Assembly: GCA_943788985.1 (NCBI GenBank)
Contig: CALSSJ010000010.1
Span: 32,001 to 96,000 of the forward strand
Direction of reading: 5' to 3'
Source: an uncultured Lentisphaerales bacterium
GTDB taxonomy: Bacteria > Verrucomicrobiota > Lentisphaeria > JABSQK01 > UBA12247
Length of the DNA stretch: 64,000 bases
The translations under genes and the position numbers were made by a program. Below the pieces are notes generated by a model that saw only the letters and a list, made by a program, of their open reading frames with translations, did no database searches and was not told where the DNA came from. This document shows, in pieces, positions 2,470 to 49,547 of the stretch. Each line of letters begins with the position of its first letter. The first letter of the stretch is position 1.

Positions 2470-2715
2470 ATGATTGCAACATTGACATCCAAAGGCCAAT
2501 TGACACTGCCGAAGCCTGTTCGTGAGCAGTGTGGGCTACGCACAGGTGACCGGGTTGATTGCATTGTCAGAGAAGATGGCCTGATCGAAATAGTCCCTCT
2601 TCGTCAGCCAGCTTCAAAGCTTCGCGGCCTCCTCCCCAAGCCGAGCACTCCCGTGACCATTGAGGAGATGAACGAAGCCATCGCCAGAGGAGCTTCTGCC
2701 CATGGTGGGCATTGA
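2470..2715 (+). CDS. vapB: AbrB/MazE/SpoVT-family antitoxin (VapB)
   Basis: ATLTSKGQLTLPKPVR...GDRV swapped-hairpin motif; overlaps the PIN toxin gene. Confidence 0.9.
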   Translation: MIATLTSKGQLTLPKPVREQCGLRTGDRVDCIVREDGLIEIVPLRQPASKLRGLLPKPSTPVTIEEMNEAIARGASAHGGH

Positions 2716-3112
2716 CACGAATGTTCTGGTTCGCCATGTCGTGCAGGACGACGAGCGGCAGGCAGCGTTGGCCAGCGAACTCATCGAGAACCACCTCAGT
2801 GCCGAACACCATGCCCACATTCCGCTGATCGTCCTATGCGAGTTTGTCTGGGTTCTGGGCACGGCCTACGGGTATTCCCGGCAGCAGATTTCTCTTGCTC
2901 TCAGACAGCTTCTTGTTACCGACTGTTTCGCGGTCGAGAGGCATGATCTGGCCTGGACCGCATACCGAGACTACCACGTCGGAAGCGCGGACTATGCCGA
3001 CTGCCTTATCGCGCAAATCAACAGCGACCGCGGGGCTTCCCCCACATTTACCTTTGATCGTAAAGCAGCCAAAAACTCCAAGTTCTTGCTATTGACTGAG
3101 AAGAATCTGTAG
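2702..3112 (+). CDS. vapC: PIN-domain VapC toxin
   Basis: GIDTNVLVR, E, DYADCLI and TFD PIN acidic residues. Confidence 0.9.
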   Translation: MVGIDTNVLVRHVVQDDERQAALASELIENHLSAEHHAHIPLIVLCEFVWVLGTAYGYSRQQISLALRQLLVTDCFAVERHDLAWTAYRDYHVGSADYADCLIAQINSDRGASPTFTFDRKAAKNSKFLLLTEKNL

Positions 3113-8083: not shown

Positions 8084-9010
8084 TTACAGCACGAGTGTCC
8101 CCGCGATTGCGCCGCTACTCTCGTCATCTGGTTGGCCACCGCCGACGCTGATGGCGTAGTCGCCGCTTGCGAAAATGGGCGCGCCCTTGGCGCTGTAGGC
8201 GGTAAGCTGCTTGCGCTTGATGGTCAGGCTAACGGTCTTGGTCGCGCCCGCTTTGATGCGAACCCGCTTGAAGGCCAAAAGCTGCTTGATCGGCGTCGGG
8301 ACCCGGACCGGGCTGTCCGTGACGTACACCTGGACCACTTCGTCGCCGTCGCGCTTGCCGCTGTTCTTCACCTCGACGGTCAGGGTCAAGCCATCCACCT
8401 TTAGCTTACTATACTTGGACGTTGTGTAACTCAGCCCATAGCCGAACTGGTAGAGCGCCTCCTTCTTCATGAACCGATAGGTGCGCCCCTTCATCCGGTA
8501 GTCGGTGAAGGTAGGAATATCTGCCAGCGACTTAATGAAGGTCAGGGGCAGGCGTCCGGCCGGATTGTAGTCGCCGAAGATGGCATCGGCCATTGCTTCG
8601 CCGCCAGCCTCGCCCGGATACCAGACCATCAAGATGGCCGCTCAGTGTTCCTTGGCCCAGTTGAACTCAATCGGGCTGCCTCCGGTAAGCACGAGGATCA
8701 CCGGCTTGCCGGTCGCGACCAACTTCTCCAGCAAGGCCTGCTGCTGCGTGGGCAGTCCGATGCTGACACGATCCCCGCCGCCCTCGGCATCGGGCACGCC
8801 CATGTCACCCGCCTCTTCGCCCTCCATCTCAGGTGTGACGCCCATGCAGGCGATGATCACCTCGGCATCATTCAAGGCCCAGCCGATCTCTTCTTCGATC
8901 GCACCCGAGCAGTAATTCACCTGGGTGCCCGCTGAGACCTTGCCGACCACGCCCTCGAGCAGCGTCGAGAAGCGAGAGGATAAGCCGTTGTAGTTACCCC
9001 ACAGCACGTC
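8084..9010 (-). pseudogene. GH3 beta-glucosidase/xylosidase, C-terminal half only, with in-frame TGA
   Basis: GNYNG..EGEE..GDR..LP..Q, then EH*AAILMVWYPGEAGG (TGA at 8642-8644) and Fn3-like GDEVVQVY; catalytic N-terminal domain missing. Confidence 0.85.
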
Positions 9011-30582: not shown

Positions 30583-32559
30583 ATGATTCGGCGCTTTTTT
30601 CCCGCGGTCCTCGCTGCACTTCTCCTGACTGGCCCAGCCAGCGGCCAACAACAGATCACCCTGGAGCCCATGGTTGGCCTGTGGGTGCTCAATGACACCG
30701 GGGTCGAGCAAGTCCTCGCAACTCTTAGGCAGGAGCAAAAGGACGACAGCGAGATTTCCTTTGCCCGGGAAGTCATGACCCGCATGATGAAATCCACAAC
30801 CTATGAGATTCAACCTCGGGCGATCATTGCCCTGATGAACGGCAAGCGCCATGTGCTGCAGGTCGAATCAATCTCAAAAGAGGGCCCGCGCTACACACTC
30901 ATGCTCGACGGCAACCATTCCATCGAACTGACCTGGAATGATCCCATCGTACTGTTCAAGCAACAGAGACAGGCATTCGGCCTGCCGCTTTCGCAGTTGA
31001 GCGGCCACGCGCTGCGCGAGCGCGAGCAGGCGATCGCCGAAGCCTTCCAGCGGGCGATCGAAGGGCCGAGCGATCAGATGCCGCCCTTGCAGCGCATCAT
31101 GTGGCTGCTTAATACCGAGCTCGCAGTCGTAGAGAAAAAGCTCGCCATGACGCCAGCATGGGCGAAGCTACAAGGAGCGGCAAATCGCACGGCATTGCAC
31201 TACGCCGCCCAGCACAACAAGCCAAGCTTGGTAAAGCTACTGCTTAGCTCCGGTGCCGATCCAACCCAGACTGACGACAATGGCCGGATTGCGTTGCATG
31301 ACGCGGTCTCTGGACCCGGCCCGCGATCCTTGGAATCCATCGAGCTGCTGCTCGCCGCTGGAAGTGACCTCAACGCAGTTGATCGATTTCGCCGCACGCC
31401 GGTCACCCAAGTCCAGAACCCCGACGTTCTTAAGCTCCTGCTGCAGAAAGGTGTCGAGACAGACCCTGTTGCCCTCCGCCCTGCCCTGGAAAACGCGCTG
31501 CGCGCCGAAAACTTCGCGCTCATCCAGCAGGTCCTCGACGCCGGGGTCAACATCAATGCAGTGTTGGATTCCAGACAGGACACGCTGCTGCACCGCGCAG
31601 CCGCACAGGACAACGTCGCAGCCGTGCGCTGGCTCCTTAAGCAGGGAGCCGACCCGCAGCCAGCGGGCAAGGACGGCTTCGTACCACTGTCCTACGCCGC
31701 GCGAAACCAAGGGCTGGCCTGTCTGAGCGCACTCCTGGAGGCAGGCGCTCTGCCCGATGGGCAACCGGGTGCCGCGTACAGCCCGCTTCATCTGGCAGCG
31801 TCATCCGGCAAGCCGGAGGCAGTCTCGCTGCTACTGCAAGCCGGGGCAGACGCCAATCTCCAACCCAAGACTCCGACCGACCAGATCGGAGCCACTGCCT
31901 TGCTCCTCGCTGTAGAGGAGCAACAGGTGGAATGTGTGAAACTGTTGCTAGCCGCTGGGGCCAAGCCAGAACAGATCTGCTCCAGGCTTCAAACGCCCAT
32001 TGACGCCGCCAACAACGCCAACTCCCCTGAGCTTTGGGCGCTGCTGCCGTTTCCCGGCAAAGAGCCGCGCGCAGCACCCGCCACAGGACCAGAGGGCCCA
32101 CCGCAGATTTCCGTTACCCTTGGGAAATCTTGGAAAGAGATCCGCGGCTCCCACTGGAAGACTCAGGAACTTGGCAAGCCCCAGACCTACTTTATCGAAC
32201 GCGGAGACTATCGGGTCACGGTTGAATTTCCGGACGGCACGCAAGCCACCGTTCCTCTCTACCGAAACCTCCGCCTAGACCAGAGGCAGGGAATCATCAC
32301 CATGGTCGCAGGAAAGCTCACCGCCGAGCCGCTCACTCTTCCGGACGTAGTGGCCCAGCTCGAGAGGTGGCTTAAGACTCTGGCCGCGAACCCGACCGAA
32401 TCAAGCGCGGCCGCCTTTGCAAGCCTGCGCGACGGCCCGCTGAGGCCCGCTTCGATCATCGCCACCCGCCCAGACGGCGTCATTGCCCAATTCAATGCTA
32501 GCCCGTCGCGAAAAGCCCACTGGCTCCTCGAACTTCAGCTGACGACCCCAATTAACTAG
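30583..32559 (+). CDS. Secreted ankyrin-repeat protein
   Basis: Signal peptide; repeats such as TALHYAA..LLLSSGADP, SPLHLAA..LLLQAGADAN. Confidence 0.88.
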   Translation: MIRRFFPAVLAALLLTGPASGQQQITLEPMVGLWVLNDTGVEQVLATLRQEQKDDSEISFAREVMTRMMKSTTYEIQPRAIIALMNGKRHVLQVESISKEGPRYTLMLDGNHSIELTWNDPIVLFKQQRQAFGLPLSQLSGHALREREQAIAEAFQRAIEGPSDQMPPLQRIMWLLNTELAVVEKKLAMTPAWAKLQGAANRTALHYAAQHNKPSLVKLLLSSGADPTQTDDNGRIALHDAVSGPGPRSLESIELLLAAGSDLNAVDRFRRTPVTQVQNPDVLKLLLQKGVETDPVALRPALENALRAENFALIQQVLDAGVNINAVLDSRQDTLLHRAAAQDNVAAVRWLLKQGADPQPAGKDGFVPLSYAARNQGLACLSALLEAGALPDGQPGAAYSPLHLAASSGKPEAVSLLLQAGADANLQPKTPTDQIGATALLLAVEEQQVECVKLLLAAGAKPEQICSRLQTPIDAANNANSPELWALLPFPGKEPRAAPATGPEGPPQISVTLGKSWKEIRGSHWKTQELGKPQTYFIERGDYRVTVEFPDGTQATVPLYRNLRLDQRQGIITMVAGKLTAEPLTLPDVVAQLERWLKTLAANPTESSAAAFASLRDGPLRPASIIATRPDGVIAQFNASPSRKAHWLLELQLTTPIN

Positions 32560-32561
32560 CC

Positions 32562-33437
32562 GTGAAAACATCCTTGCTCCCCCCGACCATGTTGCAGCGT
32601 CTGGAACGCATGCGCCTCGTGAGTGCGCGGCGCAATACCAGCCGAGTGCGGGGCGAGCACCTGACAGGAAGAAGCGGCAGCAGCAACGAGTTTTCAGACT
32701 ATCGCAATTACGTCGCCGGGGATGATACGCGCTTCGTCGACTGGAACGCATTTGCCCGCCTGCGCCGCCCATACATGAAGCTCTACCGCGAAGAAGACGA
32801 GATGAGCGTGGTGCTTCTGATCGACGCCTCCAAATCCATGGCCGAGCACGATAAATTCACCCGCGCTCAACAGCTGGCGTTGGCCTTTGCCATCATGGCC
32901 CTGTATGGCGGCGAACGTCTCAGCGCGTATGCCATCACCGGCAGTGGTGTCGCCCACTGGAAACCAGCGCGCGGCCGCGGCCAAATTGCGAAGTTCGCAC
33001 ATTTTTTAGAGACTCTCAATTCCGACGGGGAGGCGAGCATTGAAGCCTGCGCCGAGACCGCCATGCGCTATCACAGCGGGCGGGGGCTGGTCATCGTGCT
33101 CTCAGACTTCCTCACCCAGGGCGACCTCAAGAAGATGTTCAATCGCTTGTTCAGTCAGGGCCTCGAGATTATGGCCACCCAGATTCTCAGTGGGGTCGAG
33201 CTCAACCCAGAGTTGACCGGTGACGCGCGCCTGGTTGATTGCGAGACCAGCGAGGTGCTCGATGTCTCGGCGAACTCCTACCTCATGCAGCTCTACCATG
33301 AACACCTCAGCGATCTCCGAGAATTACTGGGCTCGCTCGCCAAATCACGGGGCGGGCGATATCTCAGCTTCTGCGCAGATGACCGCATTGAGGAGATGTT
33401 ATTCGGCCAGGCTCTTCGCGCCGGGTGGCTGAAATGA
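32562..33437 (+). CDS. DUF58 (VWA-like) protein
   Basis: GSSNEFSDYRNYVAGDDTRFVDWN, IDASKSM, VLSDF. Confidence 0.92.
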   Translation: MKTSLLPPTMLQRLERMRLVSARRNTSRVRGEHLTGRSGSSNEFSDYRNYVAGDDTRFVDWNAFARLRRPYMKLYREEDEMSVVLLIDASKSMAEHDKFTRAQQLALAFAIMALYGGERLSAYAITGSGVAHWKPARGRGQIAKFAHFLETLNSDGEASIEACAETAMRYHSGRGLVIVLSDFLTQGDLKKMFNRLFSQGLEIMATQILSGVELNPELTGDARLVDCETSEVLDVSANSYLMQLYHEHLSDLRELLGSLAKSRGGRYLSFCADDRIEEMLFGQALRAGWLK

Positions 33438-35305
33438 AGCTAGGCTTTCATGCCCCCGCTCTCGCTTGGCTGGCCCTCCTGGCCCTTCCGCTCATCGTTG
33501 CCTATTTCCTCAAGCTGCGCCGGGCGAACTGCGCCGTCTCCTCGCTGGCATTGTGGCAGCGTGTCCTCGAGGACAAACGCGTCAATTCCCCCTTTCAGCG
33601 CTTCCGCCGGCACCTCCTGTTATTCATCCAACTGCTCGTCCTAGCCCTACTGGTCTTGGCCGCTATGCAGCCTCTCTGGGGAGGAGCTAGCGGCGGCGGG
33701 GAGCGCGTCCCGATCATCGTCGATTGCTCCGCCAGCATGGCCGCCACCACTCCGGAAGGCGGAACCCAGTTGGAGGCCGCAGTCAAGGAAGCGCGAAGCC
33801 TGATTGATTCGCTCAGCAAGAATCAGCAAGCAGCCGTGCTGGCCATGGCAGATTATCCGCGTAAGCTGGTGGATTTCACCACCGACCGCAGGCTGTTGCA
33901 TCAGGCACTGGATTCGCTCGAGACCGTAGACGTTCCAGCAGACATCTCCGCAGCCCTGGGGCTTGGCCAAGCCCTTAGCCAGAGCCACCCTTTCGAGCAA
34001 ATGCACCTGTTCACCGACGGCAACATTGACGCCCAGGCTAAGCTCAAGCTATCCTTTAACGTTCAGTTTCACCGGCTCTCGCCAGCCGAGAATAACATTG
34101 GCATCAGTGGGCTCAACGCGCGCCGCAGCCCATCCGGGGCCTGGGACCTTCTCGTGCAAGTCGATGGCAGCGGCTCCGGCACCGGAGACGTCGCCCTAAA
34201 GATCGGTGACGAAATCATTGCTCAGGGCAGAGTCGCCGTCATCGATGGCGCGGGCGATCCGCTCCTTTTCAGCGTTTCGCCCGAGCAACACAGCGTAATC
34301 GAGGTCCAGCTCAAACTCAGCCAACCCGACTCACTGGCGGCAGACAATACCGCCTATATCTCACTCGGTGTGCCCCGTGACATCACAGTCAGGGTCACCG
34401 ACCCCAGCCCATTCATCGAGCATGCCCTGTCCGTACAGGACGGCCTCCTGGTACTCGGCACAGAGTCCGAGACCAAGTTTGTCGACGTTGCCATTGCCAG
34501 CACGCCCGAAGGCCAGCAGAAAGCCGCCGTAGTGCTTGTCACCGCCGGCACCATTCCCGAAGACCTTCAGGATCTACTAACCCAACAAGACAAACAGACA
34601 GAGATCATCGACTGGCTGCGAGAAGATCCTCTGCTGTGTAACGTACCGCTCGCCGAAGTCGGGTTCGCCCAGCGAGTGGCTTGGAAGGTAGTCGAAGGCG
34701 CGTCGCAACACCAACAGCGCGCCCTGCTGGAATCCCGCGGCTACCAGATTGTAGCCTCCGGCGAAACCGGCCCTCTCATTCTCCGCTGGGGCTCCACGAG
34801 TCAGCCCGTGTACCACCTGCTATTCCACCTCAAAGACTCCGAGTTACCCATGCGCATCGGCTTTCCGGTCATGCTCACCAACCTCACCGCCATCGGTCGC
34901 AAACTAGCTGGTCTGTCAATCGTCGCCGCGACCGGCACCGGTGTACTCGCTCCCATTCACACCACCGGCGAGACCACCATCACGGTCCAAACACCAAGCG
35001 GCCTGGCGCAGCAGCTCATCAGCGACAGCGAAGGCCGGGCGGCGGGCGTGCGCGCCACCTCCGTTGGCCTCTACCCGTGGATGTCCGACAGCGACTCCGG
35101 CATCGCCACTGCCAGCCTCCTGTCCCCAACCGAGAGCCAGCTCCTCACCATCGACGAGATCAACTTCCAAGAAGACCTCCGCGTCACCACCAGCAAGGCA
35201 GGTTGGGAAGCCCAGCGCCCGCTCTGGACCTGGTTTGCGATCATTGCACTTCTCGTCCTCTTTTGGGAGTGGTGGTACTTTCAGCGCGGCGCTCGTGGCA
35301 CCTGA
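33434..35305 (+). CDS. BatA-N / VWA-domain membrane protein
   Basis: BatA-type N-terminus, MIDAS DCSASM..FTDG, C-terminal TM ending EWW. Confidence 0.85.
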   Translation: MKLGFHAPALAWLALLALPLIVAYFLKLRRANCAVSSLALWQRVLEDKRVNSPFQRFRRHLLLFIQLLVLALLVLAAMQPLWGGASGGGERVPIIVDCSASMAATTPEGGTQLEAAVKEARSLIDSLSKNQQAAVLAMADYPRKLVDFTTDRRLLHQALDSLETVDVPADISAALGLGQALSQSHPFEQMHLFTDGNIDAQAKLKLSFNVQFHRLSPAENNIGISGLNARRSPSGAWDLLVQVDGSGSGTGDVALKIGDEIIAQGRVAVIDGAGDPLLFSVSPEQHSVIEVQLKLSQPDSLAADNTAYISLGVPRDITVRVTDPSPFIEHALSVQDGLLVLGTESETKFVDVAIASTPEGQQKAAVVLVTAGTIPEDLQDLLTQQDKQTEIIDWLREDPLLCNVPLAEVGFAQRVAWKVVEGASQHQQRALLESRGYQIVASGETGPLILRWGSTSQPVYHLLFHLKDSELPMRIGFPVMLTNLTAIGRKLAGLSIVAATGTGVLAPIHTTGETTITVQTPSGLAQQLISDSEGRAAGVRATSVGLYPWMSDSDSGIATASLLSPTESQLLTIDEINFQEDLRVTTSKAGWEAQRPLWTWFAIIALLVLFWEWWYFQRGARGT

Positions 35306-38872: not shown

Positions 38873-40484
38873 CGCTGATAGGCTCGGGCAGTTCAGGCCA
38901 GGCGACCGATAGCTGCGACAGCAAGTCACGCGCGATCGCAGCGTAGTGATGCCGGACTGACGGCAACGGCAGCGGGTTCGCCTCACATGCAGCGGCCAAC
39001 AATTCGCAGTCCACTCCCCACTCGGTTGCGAAGATCGCAAAGCGATGCACGACGGTCGGAAAGGTCTCGCTTACGGAGCGTAGAAATGCGGCCGCCTCGA
39101 GCGCAGCCCCAGTTGCGGACTTCGCACGCACCAGCATTGCGGCGAAGCAGCGGGTGACCGGTGCCAGGGTCTCACACAGGTAGTCTTGCGCAAGCACCGC
39201 AGCGACCACCTCCTCCAGCGAGTTCAACAGATCCTGAACGGTCAGGTTCCCCTGAATCGTCCGCCAGTGCGCAGATTCGCAGTGCCTCGCCTGCTCCGGC
39301 CACAACAGCAAGCGCATCCAGGTGAGAGCCCCCGACAGTGCGGCCTCATCGGCTCTATGACGAAACGGCAGGCTGTGGGCCCAGGAGCCGGCTCTTACAC
39401 GGTCGGTGATCTGCCGACCCCATTCCAGCGCAGCTTCGCGGTCACGGGCAGAAAGGGCGCTTTGGAGTCCGGCAAGCAGCGCTGCTACCGGACCCCGTTC
39501 ATCCACTGCCTGCGCGCTCAGGCGCTCGGCAAGGCGGGCCCAGGCTGCGCCTTCTTTCAGCTCTCCCAAGGTGACCAGCAACTCAGCAAAACGCACCGCG
39601 CTACCGGAACAATCATCCAGGCTGTGACTGCGAAGGGTGCGATCGAAACGGCCATGGTAATGATCCAAGGTCATCTCATTGTGGTAGACACGGCTCATGC
39701 CAGTAAGCGAGACATCTCCCAACAGCGCCAGATCACTCGATTTCGTAAAACACTCCAGAGCCTGCTGATAAAGTTGTTCGATCTCAGGATCGCTCCGGTG
39801 GACGCGCCGCGTCACCTTTCCCGTAGTTTCCAGCATATACCGCCCCACCACCCTGGCGGCGAATGACTGGTCTGGCTCATCAAGCAGCTTGTCCAGCGCC
39901 CAGCAATAGTCCAAAGATAAGCGTACCCCTGGCAGCAGGCCTCCTGTGCCCACGAGCGCGGCTGGAACCAAGGTGCGCTGCCAACGATCCCAACTGCGGG
40001 CTGCCTGCCGCGGAGCTTGCGGTCCAGACATCTTGGCGGCTACCGAGAAGGCTCTTCCAAAGGAGCCGCCGGTAACGGCGGGAAGTGGAGGAACCACTTG
40101 CCGCGCGCGAAGCATTTCGTAGGTAAAGGCACGCCCACTCCGAACCCGGCGCAAGGGCGTTGCGGACTTCGCAACCGTGGGCCCGAGGAAGGCCAAAGCT
40201 TCCGGCAACAGGTTTGCCTTCAAGTCGTGATGGATGCGCAGCCCGACCTGCAAACAATGGTCCTGGGCTTTCTCAGGGCAGGCGATGCCCAGCGAGGTCG
40301 GCAGGCACCACCCGTCTGAAGCTGAGCCGGCGAGCATAAAGGACCAGAAGCCCCACTGTTGCGGCATCGCGCGGGTGGCAAAGTTGTGCCTCCAGACAGC
40401 GATCTGGAAGAGACTACGCAGGGGGCGCGAGATCTCAGGATGCGCCAGAACCGCGCCGGTTAGGTCCTCATCGGGAATCAGCAT
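38865..40484 (-). CDS. Hypothetical protein, helical/TPR-like C-terminal half; start uncertain
   Basis: Long ORF overlapping the methyltransferase start; no recognised motif. Confidence 0.55.
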   Translation of the reverse strand: MLIPDEDLTGAVLAHPEISRPLRSLFQIAVWRHNFATRAMPQQWGFWSFMLAGSASDGWCLPTSLGIACPEKAQDHCLQVGLRIHHDLKANLLPEALAFLGPTVAKSATPLRRVRSGRAFTYEMLRARQVVPPLPAVTGGSFGRAFSVAAKMSGPQAPRQAARSWDRWQRTLVPAALVGTGGLLPGVRLSLDYCWALDKLLDEPDQSFAARVVGRYMLETTGKVTRRVHRSDPEIEQLYQQALECFTKSSDLALLGDVSLTGMSRVYHNEMTLDHYHGRFDRTLRSHSLDDCSGSAVRFAELLVTLGELKEGAAWARLAERLSAQAVDERGPVAALLAGLQSALSARDREAALEWGRQITDRVRAGSWAHSLPFRHRADEAALSGALTWMRLLLWPEQARHCESAHWRTIQGNLTVQDLLNSLEEVVAAVLAQDYLCETLAPVTRCFAAMLVRAKSATGAALEAAAFLRSVSETFPTVVHRFAIFATEWGVDCELLAAACEANPLPLPSVRHHYAAIARDLLSQLSVAWPELPEPISGE

Positions 40485-40804
40485 CGGCCGGGCGGCACCA
40501 AGAAGGTCCGAAGTCCAGGGCTGCCAGGGATAGCGGCCGTCTCCAAGGATGGTCGCGAAACGACAGCTGTTTTTACTTGCGAGAAGGTGAAACAGCTCGT
40601 CGGTGCATTTCTGTGGCGAAAAATTTAGCATTTCTTGAATATGCCATAGGCACCCCAGTGAGCCAACGCCGCACGGATTCAAAAGCCTTGGTGAGGCTCG
40701 TGGCGGACTTGAGGGGCGTTTAATCTACGCAGCTAAACCGCAATTATTCCGAACAGTCAGGCGTGAGAAGCCTCAACCCTCTGCATTTGCTAGTCAAAAT
40801 AAGA

Positions 40805-40864
40805 TACTGAAATACACTTAACCAAACTAAACTGCACTTTACGCAACTATACTACAGTTTATTT
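40805..40864. repeat. Three imperfect AT-rich direct repeats with 20-bp period (tubC-like iterons)
   Basis: TACTGAAATACACTTAA (40805), AACTAAACTGCACTTTA (40825), AACTATACTACAGTTTA (40845). Confidence 0.6.
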
Positions 40865-40973
40865 CAATAAAGATGCTGTTTGCTGCTTGACAGCACGCAT
40901 TGAGTTGCCAAGATACCCATCCGCAGACCACACGGGCAAGGTCGCCCGTCACCTACAATCCGGACAGCAGCCA

Positions 40974-41303
40974 GTGAGTGAGCTTTTTGCAGAGCAGGTA
41001 GAGCACCTTCGCGAGACCCATTTTCTCGTGTTGTTCTGGGCTGCGAAGGCTGAGAGTAAGAGTCGTGTGTATAATCTTACAAATGCCTTTGATGATCTCA
41101 AGGCTCACGACATTACCCGGACTAAGCAGACGGCTATGGCCTGTGTGGAAGCGCTTTGTCAGCTCCGCTTTTTAAACGTTCGCGACGAGCGCAATCGCAA
41201 GAATCTCTATATTACAACCCACGGAGCAAAGGCGATCGAGCAGCTGGCCACCAGCCATCGATTTCAAGTCCGCCGCTCCACTTTCCTGGAGGGAATCGCA
41301 TGA
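40974..41303 (+). CDS. Small putative winged-helix DNA-binding protein (TubR-like)
   Basis: 109 aa; helices then LRFLNVRDERNRKNLYITTHG wing-like hairpin; ATGA-coupled to the tubulin-like gene. Confidence 0.65.
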   Translation: MSELFAEQVEHLRETHFLVLFWAAKAESKSRVYNLTNAFDDLKAHDITRTKQTAMACVEALCQLRFLNVRDERNRKNLYITTHGAKAIEQLATSHRFQVRRSTFLEGIA

Positions 41304-42403
41304 GTATCGGAATCGGCGGCGCAGGTAGCAAGCTGGCAAGTTTGCTTGACACAGGCAACGCCATCATCGTCAACGTCTCTGAGATGGAGCTCGACAAGGT
41401 CGAAGCATCATCGAAGCTGCGAGCAGTTGCGAGCACCAACCGTGCCGCTTTACAAGGGTCACGGAAGGATCCAACGCTAGCCAAGGAGGCCTTCTCCTCG
41501 GTGCGCGACGTCCTCCTCCACGAGATCCAGAACAACATCGTCTTTACCTCCACCGGCGGCGGCACCGGCAACGGCATCTGCACCAAGCTGCTGGACCACG
41601 TCAGCGATCTGCCTCGTGTGGCTCTCGATGACAAGACCATGTTTGTCTTCGTACTGCCCTACGCCGATCAGGAAGCCGCTGAGTTCGTCGACAACACCAT
41701 CGACTTCCTCGAAGGCCCAGTGGCTCGCGCCATCGACACCGGCAACACTGGCAACATCGTGCTGATCTCCAACAAGCAGAAATTCATCGACCGCCAAGCG
41801 GAACTCGAATACAACCAGCGCTGCATCGAATCGCTGCGCACGTTCCTCGATATTCCGCACAAGTGCGACCGCTTCTCGACCCTCGACGGGACGGTCGACT
41901 ACGAGGACTTTCGTCACTACTGTGCTCGGCCGTATTTCAATCACTTCTTCCATGTCTCTTTCGACTTGGAGAAGCCGATTGGCGAGCAAATTCGCGAGGC
42001 AACTAATCCCCTGTTGCTTCCGCCAGCCGCTCCCATCGAGTCCCTGTTTCTGCTCGAAGTACCGAAGCCCGAGCAGGCTCCGGCGTTCTACAAGATCCTC
42101 GACTACTTCGCCAACGAGCAGCAGGTCCCGCCTGCTTACGCCGTGGTGCACAACCCCGAGATCCCGAACCCCCTGCTGACTGTCTCGCTCTTGTACTCAC
42201 GCCAGCCGCTTGAGCTCGTGGACGACTTCAACAGCATCTCGGGCCAGAACAAGCGCCGGCGCATCCGCAAGTCTCTCGACCAGAAGGTCACCCTGAGTAA
42301 GCTTGAGGTCGACTTTGAAGACGAGACCCACCAAGTAGCCAGAGAGACCGGCAAGGACGAGGACGAAGTTACCAGCGTGCTGCGCCGCATCGGCAAGCTT
42401 TAG
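41300..42403 (+). CDS. Divergent tubulin/FtsZ-family GTPase (TubZ-like)
   Basis: IGIGGAG (T1), GSRKDP (T3-like), TGGGTGNG (T4 signature), VLP..E, ISN, GTVDYEDF (T7-like); GGAGG RBS. Confidence 0.85.
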   Translation: MSIGIGGAGSKLASLLDTGNAIIVNVSEMELDKVEASSKLRAVASTNRAALQGSRKDPTLAKEAFSSVRDVLLHEIQNNIVFTSTGGGTGNGICTKLLDHVSDLPRVALDDKTMFVFVLPYADQEAAEFVDNTIDFLEGPVARAIDTGNTGNIVLISNKQKFIDRQAELEYNQRCIESLRTFLDIPHKCDRFSTLDGTVDYEDFRHYCARPYFNHFFHVSFDLEKPIGEQIREATNPLLLPPAAPIESLFLLEVPKPEQAPAFYKILDYFANEQQVPPAYAVVHNPEIPNPLLTVSLLYSRQPLELVDDFNSISGQNKRRRIRKSLDQKVTLSKLEVDFEDETHQVARETGKDEDEVTSVLRRIGKL

Positions 42404-43227
42404 CCTGGAGACAGTCACCACGGCGCCCAGCGCGCCTGCCGCCGTGGGAACGCCCCAAGGCCCTTGCCCCTTGTGGGCTAGGTTCGTAGAAGGCCTCGTA
42501 GCGAAGCGGAGTGGCGTTCTTTCCATCCCGCGTGGTGCACCACGACGGGCACCTCGGCTTCTTCGTGCCTTCAGGTCAAATCAAAGACTTTCTTGGTAGC
42601 CTATTGGGTGCAGAGCTATGCATTCGTCAACCGTAGATCCAAAGAGCTTCGTGCGATGACGCCACGCGCCGAAGCGCTCCGGGCCGGATGTCGCAATCAC
42701 TCGCAAACTGTAGCAGGCTCTGATTGTTGCCTTGGGCCTCGAGAGAAAGGGACCGCAGGGATGGCGCGTCAACCGCATGTCCTCGTGCGAACTTCTACAA
42801 TGCGTGCAAGGATGGGAGCCAGTTCCCGTTGCTCTGCAGCAAGCACAGGCAGGCGAATGCGACTATCTCTGCATCCGTAGCATTACGCTGGGCATCACTG
42901 AATTCCGCCTCCCACCTGTGCCCCACTAGCGTTGTCCGTGACGATACAGCCGGGTAAAAGACGGCGGCGCCAAACCGCCCAGACACTGATAGCAGGGCAG
43001 CCAAGCGCTGGGGAATAATTGCAGACAGGGTCCTCACGGCGGATAGTTTCCGCTGGCTCTGGCGGACTATCAAAGCCCGCGCGACGCGAGGGCTGCGCCG
43101 CTTAAAACCGCCACTTGAAAGAAAAACGACCTTTGGCATCAACGCTTGACCTTTCGCCCGTGCTTGACAAGGTTAGCAACTATTGCAATCACTGGGGCCG
43201 TGCCCCGATCCACTGCGAGGCTGCTTG

Positions 43228-44777: not shown

Positions 44778-47700
44778 ATGGAAATGCCTCAAGTCTCGCT
44801 GCCTGAACAGCTGGAGCTGTACCGCGTGGCCCGGCGCCGCCGGGACCTAGTGCAACAGGCGGCGCGCTTGTTGCTGATGGCAGGCAGTGGTTTGCTCCTC
44901 TTCTGCGCCTTCGACTACTGGCTCCAACCGAGTTGGGTGGTGCGCTTCGCCTTGGCTGCGGTCTGGTACACCGCAGTCGGCATCAAGGCCGTCCGGCTCT
45001 TGCGGCGCTATGCGATACGCGCGTCGGACCTTGACATGGCCTGGGAGCTTGAAGCACGATTACCGCTGGGCGAGTGCCTCATTTCCGCGGTCGAGTTCTA
45101 TCAGTCACCACAGCTGGGCACCTCGCCGGAGATGCTGGATTGGACGCAGCTGGACGCGCAGGTAGAGCTGAGCCAAGCCACCCCCGAAGAACTCTTTCCA
45201 GTGCAACGGGCCTGGCCGGTCTGTGGCGGGATCCTCATCGCGATCTTGTTGATTGGCTGCTTGTTGCTGCCGGATGGCATCGGCCGCTCAGCCCGCCGCC
45301 TGCTGGTACCTACGCCCCATGATGCCACGGCCGGTAGCTTCAGCCTGGGCATCATTTCTCCCGGAACCGGCAATGTGCTAGAGGGGAAAACCGTAGCCGT
45401 ACGAATGCACTGCGAGGAATCGTCGCTGACGAACGTCTACCTCGTCGCCGACAATGAGTATGCCCAACACCGGATCCGAGCCGAGCTTGAGCCCACCACG
45501 GGGCACTATCTGGCAGAACTGCGCGCAGTGCGAGAAGACACGCTGTATTGGGCAGCTGCCGGGCGCGTCCGTTCGCGCGCTTACCAGCTAACTGTCCTGG
45601 CAAAGCCACGCCTGCGCGCGCTCAACTATCGCATTGTGCCGCCGGACTATCTCGACGCCGCGATCGTCGAAGGCGAGGATCTGAATGGCCAGATCGAGGG
45701 CCTGATCGGGGCTACCGTGGAGCTGAACATCGAGCTATCCTCGCCCATCACCTGGCTGCAAATCAAGCGGGGCACCGAGACCATCCGGGCCATCATAGAC
45801 GGATCGCGCGCCTCGCTGCGCTTCCACTTACGTCGCACCGAGCACTTCACGATTGAGTATGCGGACGACTCCAGCGGCCATGCCGGCCAGTTTAGTGGGC
45901 TGATTCGCGGGGTGGAGGACGAGCCACCATGGGTACAGTTTCTGACCCCGGCGGGAGACATTTATTGCGAACCGGGCGACACGGTGCCCCTTTCCTGGCG
46001 CGACTGGGACGATCATGGCCTAGAATCCGTGGCCTTGCAGATCAGCAAGAACGGCGAGCCGCTTCCGGACCGGGTGCAGGACTTGAGCGCCTCTACCGCG
46101 CAGCTCGAGCTCGACCGCCTTGGCGCACGGAGCGGCGACCGCATCGACCTGCGCCTGCTGGTCCGCGACAAAGCCGGCCGCCAAGCCACAAGCAAGACCC
46201 GCAGTTTGCATGTTTCGCGCGCCACCTTTCTGCGAGACCTACCGGCCTTCGAATCGCTGATGACGCAGCTTGCTAAGTCCGCAACGACTCTGCACGAGCA
46301 ACTCAAGGCGCTCAAGACCAGCACCGACTTAATGCGGTCCATGTCGGTCTCTGTGGGGGATGAAGCGCACCATCGCCACACCGCGGCCACTCTGCGCGAA
46401 AGCGTGGAGAACGAGCTGAGCACTGCGCTGGACCGAATCGCAGCAGGGAAGCGGATGCATCTTTTTCCGGGAAGCAGGCTGGGGCTCGCGCAGCTCGACG
46501 CCGCCCTGTCGGACATCTACCTCTTCAGCCTGGCTGGCAGCACGACAGCGTTGAACAGCGACCACCTACAGCAGGCGATCGACTCAGTCGCGCTGATCTC
46601 TCCGGTGCTCAGCGACCTCCGCGAACGCCTGCAGCAGCACAAGCGCCTGTGGACACGCGATACGCTCTATCGTCGCCTCCAGCAAGACCCGAGTCCGCAG
46701 CTGCTGATCCTGGCCGCAGCGGAGCTTGCCTCGAAAGCTAAGCCAGCGGAGATCATGCCGCAGCTTGCCGCGGCAATTGCGGAGTCCGCAGCAGCGCTAG
46801 CGAAGATTGGGAGCCTGTTGCGCAGCTGCGAGGCACTGGCCCAAAGCCACCCGCTCCCTGGGGCGCGCTTCAAAGCGCTCGCCAGTCCCGAACTGACCGA
46901 TGCGGAGCGGCTGCAACTTCTCGGCCAAGTGATCCGCCGGCTCAAATCACGCACCTTTCCCGACGCAGAGGAGGACACGACGCGGTACCTCGTGATTCGC
47001 GCACTTGAGGACGCGGCCAGCCACCAACGAATCGGCAGCATTGAGCTGCTCGCGCGCACCGTTCACCTGCTCCAATCGGGAATTGATGCCCACGCACTGA
47101 GGACTGATTGGGAACAACGACACCACAATCACCTAGATGAGCAACTCTATGCCCTCCAAATACTCCACCACGCCCCCCTCCAGTCGCAGCCCCTCTCAAA
47201 AGTGCCTGCGGCCGAGAGGCTCACGTCCGAGATTCGGATTGCCCTCAAGCGACGCAACCCAGAGTACAAAAAGCTTGCCCCAGCGTTTCATGCGCTGATG
47301 CGCGAGACTGAAACGGCCGTAGCTCGCGCCAGAACGCAACTAGCGCAATACTCTGAGCCTGCTTCGCAGAGCCTGCGCTTTGCAGCGGACCAATTGCTGG
47401 CGGCACTGGCTGGGCTCGAGCAGGACCGGGCGGACGTGGTCGATCTGCACGCCATCCTGCTCGCGGAAACCGTCGCCGAATTGGAACGTCTGGCGCGAGA
47501 TGAAATCCGGGCCGCCGAGGGCTCCATTCTGGCGGCAGCGGACGCCACAGTCTTGGCCCGAGTGACCGCAGGCCATGTCGAGGAACTGAGAGAGCAGGGC
47601 AACTCTGCAGACATCTTGGAAGCCGTCGCCGACGCACTAACGCAGCTTGCGGAGTTCGCAGAACTCTTTGAGGCAGCACTGGCTGGAGAGATCAAGCCTG

Positions 47701-49547
47701 CTGAGGCAGTTGCGAACTCTGCAGCTTTGCAACAGGCCTACGCGCTGCTTCGTCCGGAGGAACTGTCCGTCCTAGCCCCTTTGCGCCGTGAGCGCCGGGG
47801 GCTGGACGCGTTGCGCGACGCGGATCAGTCGGATTCCGCCGATGACCTTCAACGCCGTGGCGCCCGGCTGGCCTCACTCCTCGGCAGCAAAGGCAGCCGA
47901 GAGCTCCGCTCACGCGTCGAGCTGGGCTTGGCCACAGCGCAGAAAGCGGTGCTGAGTTGGCTCCTAGAGTCTGCCCAGCACGGGCATGTCCCGGCGCCGC
48001 TGGACCGCGAACTAGCCCGTGCTTGCCATGACGTCACCGCGCTCCTCCACGCATTCGCGGTCTTCAGTGATGTTGAGCTGGGGCTCCGGGCCGAACTGGC
48101 CCTCGCCGATGGCGAAGACGAGGTGTTTCAGCTGCTCGAAGCGCTGAGCGACGTGCTCGACGCGCTCCCCGCGCGGAAGCTTGAGCCCGTGGCCTATGCT
48201 TCGTCTCCACCGGACGAGGATGCGCTCTGGGCGGCACTCGCGTTTAACGATCGCGAGACAGTACTCGCGATCCTGGCAGGCCAGCCGACACAGATTGCGG
48301 AGTTCGCAACGCTCGGATTGCGCCATGGCCAAATGGCTGGTGTTACCATCGACGAGCTGGATGTGCGCCAGGGACCGCACGGCTTTCTCTCTGAGCTGCC
48401 GCTGGTGCCTACTCCGGGCGTGCCGCTGGTAGACCTCCAACTGCCGAGCCTGCAGCGCCTCGCGATCGCCCGTGAGGCCGCCACCGGGGGCAACGTGATT
48501 CAGTTGCAGACTTCGCTAGCGCGCAATGACTGGCGCCGCATATCCCGCATGTCACTAGGCTCGAGCGCCGCGTACTTGGACTTTGGGGCGAAGCTCTGGC
48601 AGGTGGCCACCGAGGCTGGCCGGACCGCGGTGCAGGTCATCCCGGCCGAAGAAGATGCGGAGTTCGCACAAGCGCAGGCTCCAAGCATGCTGAACCGGTG
48701 GGAGTTTCTGGCGCTGTGCATCGCGGAGCAGTTTGACCTCCCCCAGGCCGTGCAGGCTGTTCGCTACGGCGAACCCGAGCGCGCCATCGCCGCGTTTGCG
48801 GAGTTCGCAAAACTGCGCCCCAGCACCGCCGAGCTTTCGCTGCTTGCAGGCCGGCTGCTATGCGTCCCCGTTCCTTGGCGAGGACCACCGGAGGGGAGTG
48901 TCGAAGCCTGGCTGATGGCTACGATGTGGGATCGGGATCCGGTGCAGCAATTGCTGCGCTGGGAGGTACTGGAAGCGCTGGCCACCGGCCACGATGACCG
49001 TGCGCGGGTCCACCTGCTGGCGTATGACCGGCTCGAAACCCACCCGCAGACCCATGTCCTGTTGGCGACCCTGCCGCCTCCGGCCTTACGCCCCGAGCGC
49101 AGGCCAGAGGTCGGCCTGGCCGAGCACACCTGGGCCCCCGGATGTCCGTGGCAGCCGCATCAGGCGTTGCTGAGTGGCGAGGCCGAGCTGGTGGATGCGA
49201 TCGTCCAGCTCTGGCGCGCCGCCTACTACGCTCAATTGCCGGAGTCGGCAGCCTACCTGCGGCTCCCGGATCAGGACCAGCTCCTCGGGCAGGCACGCGA
49301 TCTGTTGGGGATCGCCGAGCAGCGGTTTGTGATGCACGCCTTCGATGCAGCCCGCCCGCTGATGTTGGCGCCGACCGGTGCCACAGATGGCTTCACAGAC
49401 CCGTTTCAATCCGCCACAACCGGCCCCGATCAGGACGACTCGCTGTTCCACAGTTTCGAACGTGCGAACTCCGCAGCAGCATTCTCGCTGCACTTTCGCC
49501 GGGCCAATCGACGCTACCTGGAGCGGTTAACGCATCTTCTGGATTGA
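44778..49547 (+). CDS. Large membrane-anchored protein (DUF4175-like: TMs, Ig-like domains, long helical tail)
   Basis: N-terminal TMs, LISAVEF, PPDY, DEPP..DDHGL motifs; 1589 aa. Confidence 0.7.
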   Translation: MEMPQVSLPEQLELYRVARRRRDLVQQAARLLLMAGSGLLLFCAFDYWLQPSWVVRFALAAVWYTAVGIKAVRLLRRYAIRASDLDMAWELEARLPLGECLISAVEFYQSPQLGTSPEMLDWTQLDAQVELSQATPEELFPVQRAWPVCGGILIAILLIGCLLLPDGIGRSARRLLVPTPHDATAGSFSLGIISPGTGNVLEGKTVAVRMHCEESSLTNVYLVADNEYAQHRIRAELEPTTGHYLAELRAVREDTLYWAAAGRVRSRAYQLTVLAKPRLRALNYRIVPPDYLDAAIVEGEDLNGQIEGLIGATVELNIELSSPITWLQIKRGTETIRAIIDGSRASLRFHLRRTEHFTIEYADDSSGHAGQFSGLIRGVEDEPPWVQFLTPAGDIYCEPGDTVPLSWRDWDDHGLESVALQISKNGEPLPDRVQDLSASTAQLELDRLGARSGDRIDLRLLVRDKAGRQATSKTRSLHVSRATFLRDLPAFESLMTQLAKSATTLHEQLKALKTSTDLMRSMSVSVGDEAHHRHTAATLRESVENELSTALDRIAAGKRMHLFPGSRLGLAQLDAALSDIYLFSLAGSTTALNSDHLQQAIDSVALISPVLSDLRERLQQHKRLWTRDTLYRRLQQDPSPQLLILAAAELASKAKPAEIMPQLAAAIAESAAALAKIGSLLRSCEALAQSHPLPGARFKALASPELTDAERLQLLGQVIRRLKSRTFPDAEEDTTRYLVIRALEDAASHQRIGSIELLARTVHLLQSGIDAHALRTDWEQRHHNHLDEQLYALQILHHAPLQSQPLSKVPAAERLTSEIRIALKRRNPEYKKLAPAFHALMRETETAVARARTQLAQYSEPASQSLRFAADQLLAALAGLEQDRADVVDLHAILLAETVAELERLARDEIRAAEGSILAAADATVLARVTAGHVEELREQGNSADILEAVADALTQLAEFAELFEAALAGEIKPAEAVANSAALQQAYALLRPEELSVLAPLRRERRGLDALRDADQSDSADDLQRRGARLASLLGSKGSRELRSRVELGLATAQKAVLSWLLESAQHGHVPAPLDRELARACHDVTALLHAFAVFSDVELGLRAELALADGEDEVFQLLEALSDVLDALPARKLEPVAYASSPPDEDALWAALAFNDRETVLAILAGQPTQIAEFATLGLRHGQMAGVTIDELDVRQGPHGFLSELPLVPTPGVPLVDLQLPSLQRLAIAREAATGGNVIQLQTSLARNDWRRISRMSLGSSAAYLDFGAKLWQVATEAGRTAVQVIPAEEDAEFAQAQAPSMLNRWEFLALCIAEQFDLPQAVQAVRYGEPERAIAAFAEFAKLRPSTAELSLLAGRLLCVPVPWRGPPEGSVEAWLMATMWDRDPVQQLLRWEVLEALATGHDDRARVHLLAYDRLETHPQTHVLLATLPPPALRPERRPEVGLAEHTWAPGCPWQPHQALLSGEAELVDAIVQLWRAAYYAQLPESAAYLRLPDQDQLLGQARDLLGIAEQRFVMHAFDAARPLMLAPTGATDGFTDPFQSATTGPDQDDSLFHSFERANSAAAFSLHFRRANRRYLERLTHLLD

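Follow-up and report, generated by a model that had tools for sequence, protein, structure and literature searches.

A chromosomal TubZRC-like gene module encoding a distinct tubulin-family protein in Lentisphaeria-labelled bacteria

An operon of two genes behind a repeat array

A 64,000-nucleotide stretch of DNA from an uncultured Lentisphaerales bacterium (positions 32,001 to 96,000 of contig CALSSJ010000010.1, assembly GCA_943788985.1; the whole stretch is called the window below) carries a compact module which resembles the TubZRC partition systems of plasmids and phages. An earlier note on the letters of the window had described an AT-rich repeat tract, an open reading frame (ORF) of 109 aa and an ATGA-coupled ORF of 367 aa, and all of these are present. 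The operon consists of two genes only. The first, tubR-like gene (40974..41303, + strand, GTG start) encodes a predicted winged-helix DNA-binding protein of 109 aa, as judged by profile comparison, structure model and conserved pairing. The second, tubZ-like gene (41300..42403, + strand) starts with ATG at 41300, ends with its stop codon at 42403 and encodes a predicted tubulin/FtsZ-fold GTPase of 367 aa, as judged by Pfam, model and structural matches. The TGA stop of the tubR-like gene at 41301-41303 overlaps the ATG of the tubZ-like gene as ATGA. Residues 349-367 of the large protein (42344..42400, + strand) form a C-terminal tail, which invariant residues and a complex prediction mark as a predicted TubR-docking peptide. 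Upstream of both genes lies a tubC-like array of TATA[CG]-type pentamers with A[CG]T every 5 bp (40804..40862, no strand assigned), a candidate centromere and operator. The GC content is 0.425-0.46 at 40700-40999 compared with about 0.6-0.65 in the flanks.

The open frame of the tubR-like gene extends from a TTG at 40887, which would give a product of 138 aa. Because the small proteins of relatives (107-118 aa, mostly 107-109) begin at the position equivalent to GTG 40974, the 109-aa form is the likely product. TTG 40887 belongs to a TTGACA which may be a -35 box. With CAAGAT after a spacer of 16 nt it makes up a possible promoter directly 3' of the array (40887..40914, + strand), and in relatives TTGACA likewise adjoins or overlaps the arrays. 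A scan for consensus promoters and terminators called nothing useful 5' of the operon; the possible TTGACA/CAAGAT promoter was missed because its -10 element fits at only 3 of 6 positions.

The large protein: a predicted tubulin fold closest to TubZ

The large protein contains GIGGAG (residues 4-9), GGGTGNG (residues 86-92) and GTVDYEDF (residues 197-204) and ends with VLRRIGKL, each at the residues read earlier. GIGGAG, GGGTGNG and GxxDxEDF we take to be the T1, T4 and T7 loops. In an alignment of 50 family sequences G4, G6, G7, G9, G86-G88, G90, G92, D200 and D203 are invariant, and so are L361, R363 and K366 in the tail. A tubulin fold had been named as a test of the first reading, and it is predicted with high confidence: the AlphaFold model has a mean predicted local distance difference test score (pLDDT) of 90.3. 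The model has a helix at 303-327, drops to pLDDT 54-76 over residues 301-340 and closes with two short terminal helices.

When the model was compared with 48,161 PDB chains, the three best matches were TubZ proteins: 4ei7 from a Bacillus cereus plasmid (Z 28.7), 4xcq from the C. botulinum phage c-st (Z 26.5) and 3m8k from pBtoxis (Z 25.2). Tubulin-family chains occupied ranks 1-17, with lower Z-scores for CetZ (24.6 and 23.0), PhiKZ TubZ (21.8), FtsZ (21.5), PhuZ (20.9 and 20.7) and tubulins (about 20). The alignment with 4ei7 comprised 308 residues and covered model residues 1-325. Identity to TubZ in the structural alignments was about 12-18%. Foldseek also gave TubZ 4ei7_A as best match (385 columns).

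At the sequence level the relationship is weak. PF00091 (Tubulin) was matched by 50 of 50 family members. PF13809 (Tubulin_2) gave E 0.23 with the large protein and matched 2 of the 50 members (best E 0.0034), and phrog_4733 matched weakly (E 3.9e-05, 23.9 bits) over residues 4-165 only. No NCBIfam model matched the large protein, ftsZ included. None of the 50 members matched a TubZ C-terminal Pfam family at E <=0.1, the models being PF21493 (TubZ_C), PF22340 (TubZ_C_3) and PF22453 (TubZ-like_C), whose presence in the library copy is assumed. A word-indexed search returned 335 homologues. The best 120 of these are 361-388 aa long, 48-100% identical and all unnamed or 'hypothetical'; the few taxon labels among the homologues read Lentisphaeria, Victivallales, Kiritimatiellales, Pontiella and Verrucomicrobiota. 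When 1.84 billion representatives were searched exhaustively with phmmer, 35 proteins came up, nearly all of them family members or fragments, and no FtsZ or TubZ. The sole outcome of a single-protein search of genome contigs was an unrelated stretch of gammaproteobacterial DNA (34% over 58 residues). Judged by these searches, the homologues form a tight and isolated family. The large protein is thus TubZ-like by structure and architecture and a family of its own by sequence. One reservation to the TubZ-like reading is therefore that the protein belongs to a distinct subfamily, with 0 of 50 members in the TubZ C-terminal families.

The genome contains a second tubulin-family gene on a separate contig (G000 contig C32:8118-9338, equivalent to L024:8118-9338), which encodes 406 aa. 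This protein scores 73.5 bits with PF00091 and 116.6 bits with the ftsZ model TIGR00065, below the cut-off of 295.2. Its gene lies outside a division and cell wall (dcw) cluster; the neighbours are an unassigned ORF and the genes for an LD-carboxypeptidase and an RseP-like protease. An FtsZ-like gene turns up in 34 of 41 relatives, among them all families without the TubZ-like gene, with 21-33% identity; in 5 genomes checked of the 7 without such a match a still weaker ftsZ-like match is present. The earlier note had asked about a separate canonical ftsZ; a separate, fast-evolving FtsZ-like gene exists. The TubZ-like protein is an extra tubulin homologue and is much better conserved than the FtsZ-like protein.

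Could the large protein be a second cell-division FtsZ, i.e. a paralogue serving the divisome? Its profile matches the N-terminal domains of FtsZ (9v7v_A, E 1.4e-07), and Foldseek ranks many FtsZ chains at E about 1e-17. However, the absence of an NCBIfam ftsZ match is joined by the lack of FtsZ_C in all 50 TubZ-like family members. Structural alignments with FtsZ stop at about residue 300 while those with TubZ reach about residue 325. The tail differs from that of the organism's own FtsZ-like protein, and the large protein is always paired with a DNA-binding protein. A Pfam scan of the window ORFs detected no dcw genes, in agreement with the earlier note. A position inside canonical FtsZ, which would have refuted the first reading, is also contradicted by the nearest structure and the FtsZ-like gene elsewhere in the genome. 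We regard a divisome paralogue as very improbable.

A 109-aa antisense ORF (42197-42526, - strand) overlaps the 3' end of the tubZ-like gene. It was rejected as a gene; its apparent conservation is that of the opposite strand of the conserved tail region.

The small protein: a winged helix resembling TubR

The model of the small protein is a winged helix (pLDDT 93.6). A profile built from 18 sequences matched TubR of pBM400 (4asn_A), aligning residues 1-94 to residues 1-91 of 101 (E 0.0025); this TubR was the sole PDB protein with an end-to-end profile match. In a Foldseek comparison 4asn_A came third, with template-modelling (TM) scores of 0.66/0.79 and a root-mean-square deviation of 2.8. 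Among many MarR-type and viral winged helices it had the best target-normalised TM score (0.79). Two stretches are invariant: T48-R49-T50-K51-Q52, with which the third helix of the fold begins, and N74-R75, located in the wing. No NCBIfam model matched the small protein. A word search yielded 19 candidates and 15 matches, a set too small to show its range.

A segment of the phage tail adaptor gp53 (PDB 9gb5_H, residues 166-228) was matched by the profile with the same E-value as TubR (0.0025) over a shorter stretch. 9gb5_H may contain a winged-helix-like segment.

In relatives the small protein is 49-57% identical and its gene is located directly 5' of the large gene. This holds for 18 of 18 relatives' loci with upstream DNA and, with the genome G225 discussed below, for 19 of 19; conservation of the upstream ORF had been proposed as a test of the first reading, and with it all three tests named there have come out in favour of that reading. 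The ATGA overlap is frequent among the relatives' gene pairs.

Predicted docking of the tail on the small protein

Two copies of the small protein were modelled together with residues 296-367 of the large protein. The complex prediction scored 0.74 compared with 0.34 for the best of three controls; that mark was attained by 116 of 157 solved complexes and by 2 of 215 mismatched pairs. The runs shared at least 71% of contacts, with a partner pLDDT of at least 51. In the predicted interface tail residues 349-367 touch residues 21-28 and 80-99 of the small protein, apart from its putative DNA-reading helix and wing. Candidate interface residues are E27 of the small protein and R363 and K366 of the tail. 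The models suggest, then, that the tail docks on the TubR-like protein. We know of no solved complex of a TubZ tail with TubR.

Repeat arrays upstream of the operon

In the window A[CG]T occurs at 40806, 40816, 40826, 40831, 40836, 40846, 40851 and 40856. The array is degenerate, with 8 of 11 successive pentamers and one 7-mer of the kind described below. A possible distal block of 20 nt (40726..40745, no strand assigned) was assigned to the same family (D1) in a repeat search, being 70% identical to 40820-40839 and 75% to 40840-40859; this partial relation to the main array is weak taken alone. Two arrays in the organism's 4.58-Mb assembly reach 7 or more A[CG]T pentamers out of 9, the other being an unrelated GTCGACT repeat. 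Block shuffles gave an expectation of 0.00 arrays per locus under the same criterion, which places the array beyond chance. This threshold is too strict for relatives, where 6 of 17 loci reach it in addition to the window, and for them it was replaced by counts of 7-mers and of 4-pentamer clusters. In 17 of 18 loci the 7-mers TA[CG]TATA/TATA[CG]TA stand 50-590 nt 5' of the small gene, often grouped in 2-3 separate blocks. Downstream they amounted to five single copies in all, over the roughly 2.9 kb following in each locus. Strict clusters of 4 perfect pentamers numbered 13 in 7,974 nt of upstream DNA and 0 in 51,716 nt of downstream DNA; shuffles gave an expected 0.01. In genome G035 the sole non-trivial array match adjoins the operon. 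Locus L013 is devoid of the TATA[CG] motif and repeats TCGAAC[AG] units instead (L013:460-760, upstream of the small gene); despite these different repeats its small protein retains the invariant TRTKQ motif. The tubC-tubR-tubZ order proposed earlier is confirmed, with repeats 5' in 17 of 18 loci and the gene pair in all 19.

According to PMC6009700, tubC in type III systems is always 5' of tubR and its direct repeats are split into blocks; the same text describes TubR as a repressor of the operon which also binds TubZ. The c-st centromere is described there as 4-5-bp iterons (A/TGAA, TTGAC) in split blocks that overlap the promoter. By this comparison the repeats of the window and its relatives, located upstream of the tubR-like gene and arranged as split direct-repeat blocks, fit the published tubC rule.

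Conservation and chromosomal residence

The large gene is single-copy in 25 of 41 related genomes, and its presence tracks families. Large proteins of the same order are 55-59% identical, those of the same class 45-55%. Some homologues reside on contigs of 1.2-8.78 Mb, and in single-contig genomes the module is single-copy. The chromosomal setting assumed earlier is confirmed by contigs of up to 8.78 Mb, the single copy and housekeeping neighbours. The ORFs of the window include DnaK, GroEL, a sigma-70 factor, PlsX, FabH and asparagine synthase (Pfam). As had been noted for the 64 kb, a Pfam scan of the 48 other window ORFs detected no integrase, transposase, replication or phage gene. Searches with tblastn recovered no relative in 72,556 plasmids and 50,697 phages, nor did a scan of IMG/VR with two peptide patterns.

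Distribution was examined in a sample of 401 genomes of the phylum. There were 37 matches: the organism's own genome, 33 genomes of its class, a strong match in G225, which belongs to another class, and two weak ones to much longer proteins. Within the own class, family f7 (0 of 65) and family f11 (0 of 24) do not carry the module. G225 is the carrier among 151 genomes of its class. Its module is complete, with two repeat blocks, and is surrounded by genes for pyruvate kinase, an ABC-F protein and leucyl-tRNA synthetase; an ISL3 transposase gene lies 4 kb away. Because a complete module is found in this lone carrier of another class, rare horizontal transfer of the compact module seems to occur.

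In the ESM Atlas the language-model neighbours of the large protein are mostly tubulin clusters labelled viral; with few records they are a lead only. The nearest cluster consists of 366-aa proteins and is possibly the protein's own family; half of its 6 taxon-labelled members are marked as viruses (Uroviricota).

At >=99% identity the operon is covered by metatranscriptome contigs which come from 4 runs belonging to 2 studies, and three such contigs bridge the junction of the tubR-like and tubZ-like genes. DNA carry-over into such RNA libraries is possible, and the contigs cannot show transcript ends. That the contigs of X19 and X20 do not cover 40400-40957 was considered as a sign of a transcript start and dismissed, as it is no evidence for one.

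These data bear on the notion that the module is what remains of an integrated plasmid or prophage in decay, devoid of a cellular function. Known TubZRC systems are plasmid- or phage-borne (PMC6009700); the language-model clusters are mostly labelled viral, in few records, and the lone carrier G225 (1 of 151) with its nearby transposase gene indicates that the module can move. Yet the module is intact and single-copy, is 45-59% identical across the class with identity tracking kinship, and has retained all three parts. No mobile-element genes are nearby, plasmid, phage and viral collections gave no match, and the operon is present in RNA libraries. Decay is the least credible of the explanations considered here.

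ParB and the position of the module relative to the replication origin

Of 134 genomes sampled from the phylum's other classes, 131 had a strong match to canonical ParB (TIGR00180; E 1e-44 to 1e-62). Among 67 sampled genomes of the own class none had a strong match, and 20 had weak ones (<=68 bits). The own genome, 83.6% complete, gave no TIGR00180 match. This looks like a class-wide loss of ParABS. A complementary distribution of module and ParB within the class was considered and rejected; families lacking the module also lack a strong ParB.

GC skew was taken from sampled 20-kb stretches, and a change from minus to plus was read as an origin-type switch. In G353 the switch is at about 1.59 Mb, the module at 1.576 Mb and dnaA at 0.613 Mb; in G035 the switch is at 2.015-2.050 Mb, the module at 2.097 Mb and dnaA at 0.608 Mb. 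In G028 the respective positions are 0.568-0.600, 0.608 and 1.296 Mb, and in G225 1.388-1.420, 1.430 and 1.386 Mb. In three single-contig genomes, one of them the lone carrier of the other class, the module is thus within about 20-85 kb of an origin-type switch, and the opposite switch is roughly half a genome away. For a random locus the chance to be that close to one given point is roughly 3-6% per genome, a rough estimate. G225 is an independent acquisition and the only independent case of origin proximity. Since dnaA in G353, G028 and G035 is at no skew change and 0.69-1.49 Mb away from the switch, an assessment of the module as remote from the origin, which used dnaA as proxy, was dropped. 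Among 38 contigs the own one (C10) has the deepest skew V; its local minima are at 82, 146 and 186 kb and the module is at 73-74 kb. Clusters of DnaA boxes are found on contigs C2 and C16 and none on C10. The earlier idea of a function in chromosome positioning receives circumstantial support, i.e. from a class without canonical ParB and from a module at an origin-type skew switch.

Another reading is a replication-linked module, in which the repeats and the winged-helix protein organise the origin or help to fire it and the tubulin-like protein is an accessory. Iterons with a winged-helix binder are the layout of plasmid origins, and it was in plasmid minireplicons that TubZ/RepX and TubR were discovered; the PDB chain 4ei7 is titled 'Plasmid replication protein RepX'. 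The module is at the minus-to-plus switch and dnaA is far off in G028, G353 and G035. Against this, dnaA is present in 7 of 7 genomes checked, and replication in families f7 and f11 proceeds without the module. In G225 the gene located at the switch is dnaA, with the module 44 kb away from it. Further, neither Pfam nor the model reveals a helicase-loader or initiator-like domain in the 109-aa protein. We consider a primary function in replication improbable.

A probable chromosomal form of the type III partition system

We favour the interpretation that the module is a chromosomally fixed, vertically inherited TubZRC-type system (type III partition-like), a DNA-anchored filament module which probably serves the origin region; on the present evidence this is somewhat better than an even proposition. 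The module displays the architecture, the structures and the cis element of TubZRC. Since it is not plasmid- or phage-borne and its large protein lies outside the TubZ C-terminal families by sequence, it is better described as a chromosomal form of the type III kind than as a plain member.

The mechanism may be envisaged as follows. Dimers of the TubR-like protein would coat the TATA[CG]-type pentamer arrays 5' of their own gene and form a nucleoprotein complex, which probably represses the operon as well. The TubZ-like GTPase would bind GTP via its T1 (GIGGAG) and T4 (GGGTGNG) loops and polymerise head to tail; GTP hydrolysis by the T7 acids D200 and D203 would render the filaments dynamic. 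The C-terminal helix (residues 349-367), carried by a flexible linker, would dock on the TubR-like protein and thus couple the filament to its DNA site. Because a single site lies beside the skew switch and the class is devoid of canonical ParB, the origin region of the chromosome is the most likely cargo, which may be segregated or positioned.

Several points weigh against this interpretation. On the protein side, the large protein scores 29.5 bits with PF00091, below the cut-off of 33, and matches of the family to the TubZ C-terminal models are absent. The margin in Z-scores is small, TubZ 3m8k (25.2) and CetZ2 (24.6) being a tie. The match of the small protein to TubR is modest (E 0.0025), and winged-helix folds are common. 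The tail, being amphipathic and basic, could be a membrane anchor instead. As to the position, origin proximity could be inherited within the class. The skew was sampled; one of the arms of G353 shows it weakly, and G004 is uninformative. In G028, G353 and G035 dnaA is 0.69-1.49 Mb away from the module. The own genome is ambiguous: the global skew minimum of C10 is 112 kb from the module, and contig C2 has dnaA, a DnaA-box cluster and the second-deepest V. The window has no DnaA-box cluster and contains 2 boxes compared with 5.9 expected. Because f7 and f11 have neither the module nor a strong ParB, the module is no simple replacement of ParB. The anatomy of the locus, the folds, the conservation of three parts, the chromosomal location and the presence in RNA libraries are observations; what we infer from them is that the small protein binds DNA, that the large one polymerises and docks by its tail, and which role they have in the cell, and the case for a role in chromosome segregation is circumstantial.

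What if the filament does not serve to move DNA? An autoregulated cytoskeletal filament might act in cell shape, division support or the organisation of compartments, with the small protein solely a repressor and the repeats solely its operator. The FtsZ-like protein of these bacteria is very divergent and encoded outside a dcw cluster, so a helper filament is conceivable. The arrays are at or beside promoter-like TTGACA boxes, the module is missing from some families of the class, and the amphipathic, basic VLRRIGKL might bind to a membrane. However, it is in DNA-partition systems that the three-part plan, the nearest structures and the TubR-like profile have their counterparts. Docking of the tail on the small protein is predicted with controls far lower, and the position at a skew switch, also in G225, is unexpected of a shape or division factor. 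We view a purely cytoskeletal function as unlikely, though less so than a replication function.

A more specific version of the DNA-anchored filament reading, which we put forward tentatively and at somewhat less than even chance, states that ParABS was lost in the Lentisphaeria-labelled class and that an origin-proximal centromere of TubR-like protein and repeats, together with treadmilling TubZ-like filaments, segregates the origin instead. A bolder variant has the module also organise the replication origin, given the large distance of dnaA from the switch in three carriers.

Comparison with known systems

In bacteria, tubulin-family filaments serve to move the DNA of plasmids and phages, and FtsZ acts in cell division; for chromosomes the prevailing view names ParABS, SMC and related systems. 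The carriers described here are a marine group of the Planctomycetes-Verrucomicrobia-Chlamydiae (PVC) bacteria, which are often brought up regarding the evolution of the cytoskeleton. As this group is without the usual chromosome-partition protein, the module may segregate the chromosome itself; if true, it would be the first tubulin-family chromosome-segregation apparatus in bacteria.

The closest parallel is provided by the TubZRC systems of Bacillus plasmids (pBtoxis, pXO1-like RepX, pBM400). They share the order of repeats, small winged-helix gene and gene of a tubulin-like GTPase, and a conserved C-terminal tail on a flexible linker; their TubZ chains are the best structural matches. They differ in that the module here is chromosomal, single-copy, vertically inherited and at home in a PVC class, in contrast to a Firmicute plasmid. 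The large protein has 367 aa compared with 382-393 residues in solved TubZ chains, is about 12-18% identical to TubZ and matches no TubZ C-terminal Pfam family, and the repeats are TATA[CG] units with a 5-bp period. The TubZRC(Y) system of the C. botulinum prophage c-st is similar with respect to structure (4xcq, Z 26.5) and its very short, split iterons. Unlike it, the module has no tubY-like fourth gene conserved downstream and a non-prophage setting. PhuZ and PhiKZ TubZ of jumbo phages have the tubulin fold and a C-terminal tail, and phrog_4733 gave the weak match mentioned above; their Z-scores (20.7-21.8) are below those of plasmid TubZ, and the module lacks a phage context. To our knowledge phage PhuZ has no TubR or centromere partner.

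FtsZ and the FtsZl-1 (Tubulin_2) family, the latter reportedly described by Makarova and Koonin in 2010, have a GTP-binding N-terminal domain and a T7 loop in common with the large protein. FtsZl-1 operons carry vWA, kinase and GTPase genes (PMC2875224). Such genes are not part of the present operon, and the PF13809 match is insignificant (E 0.23). ParABS is a functional analogue and no relative: a single cis site beside the gene of its binding protein, near the origin, is shared; the motor is a tubulin-fold GTPase here and a Walker ATPase there, and the binder a 109-aa winged helix as opposed to ParB.

The accessible parts of the literature searched (including PMC9871819, PMC2875224, PMC3495828, PMC3232192, PMC12283558 and bioRxiv 10.64898/2026.10.06.756941; subscription journals and supplements were outside its scope) contain no description of the module. 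The analysis supplies names and a hypothesis for several hundred proteins recorded as hypothetical. The idea lends itself to direct tests: both proteins are small, the cis site has been delimited, the models predict a docking interface and environmental RNA libraries contain the operon.

Neighbouring genes in the window

The neighbours of the module in the window, including the flanking DUF58, BatA/vWA and HEAT genes and a 1,589-aa ORF, are not conserved beside it in relatives. The DUF58 and BatA/vWA pair is 5 kb 5' of the module (within 32562-35305). The 1,589-aa ORF, which has no Pfam match, is 2.4 kb 3' of it (44778-49547), and genes for a HEAT-repeat protein and a GIDE-like membrane protein are situated in between. 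At 8084-9007 (- strand) adjacent ORFs of 182 and 121 aa match successive parts of Glyco_hydro_3_C and an Fn3-like domain; possibly they represent a GH3 gene with a frameshift or a truncation. Finally, a 136-aa ORF with a VapC-like PIN domain (2702-3112, + strand) is located amid sulfatase and glycoside-hydrolase genes.

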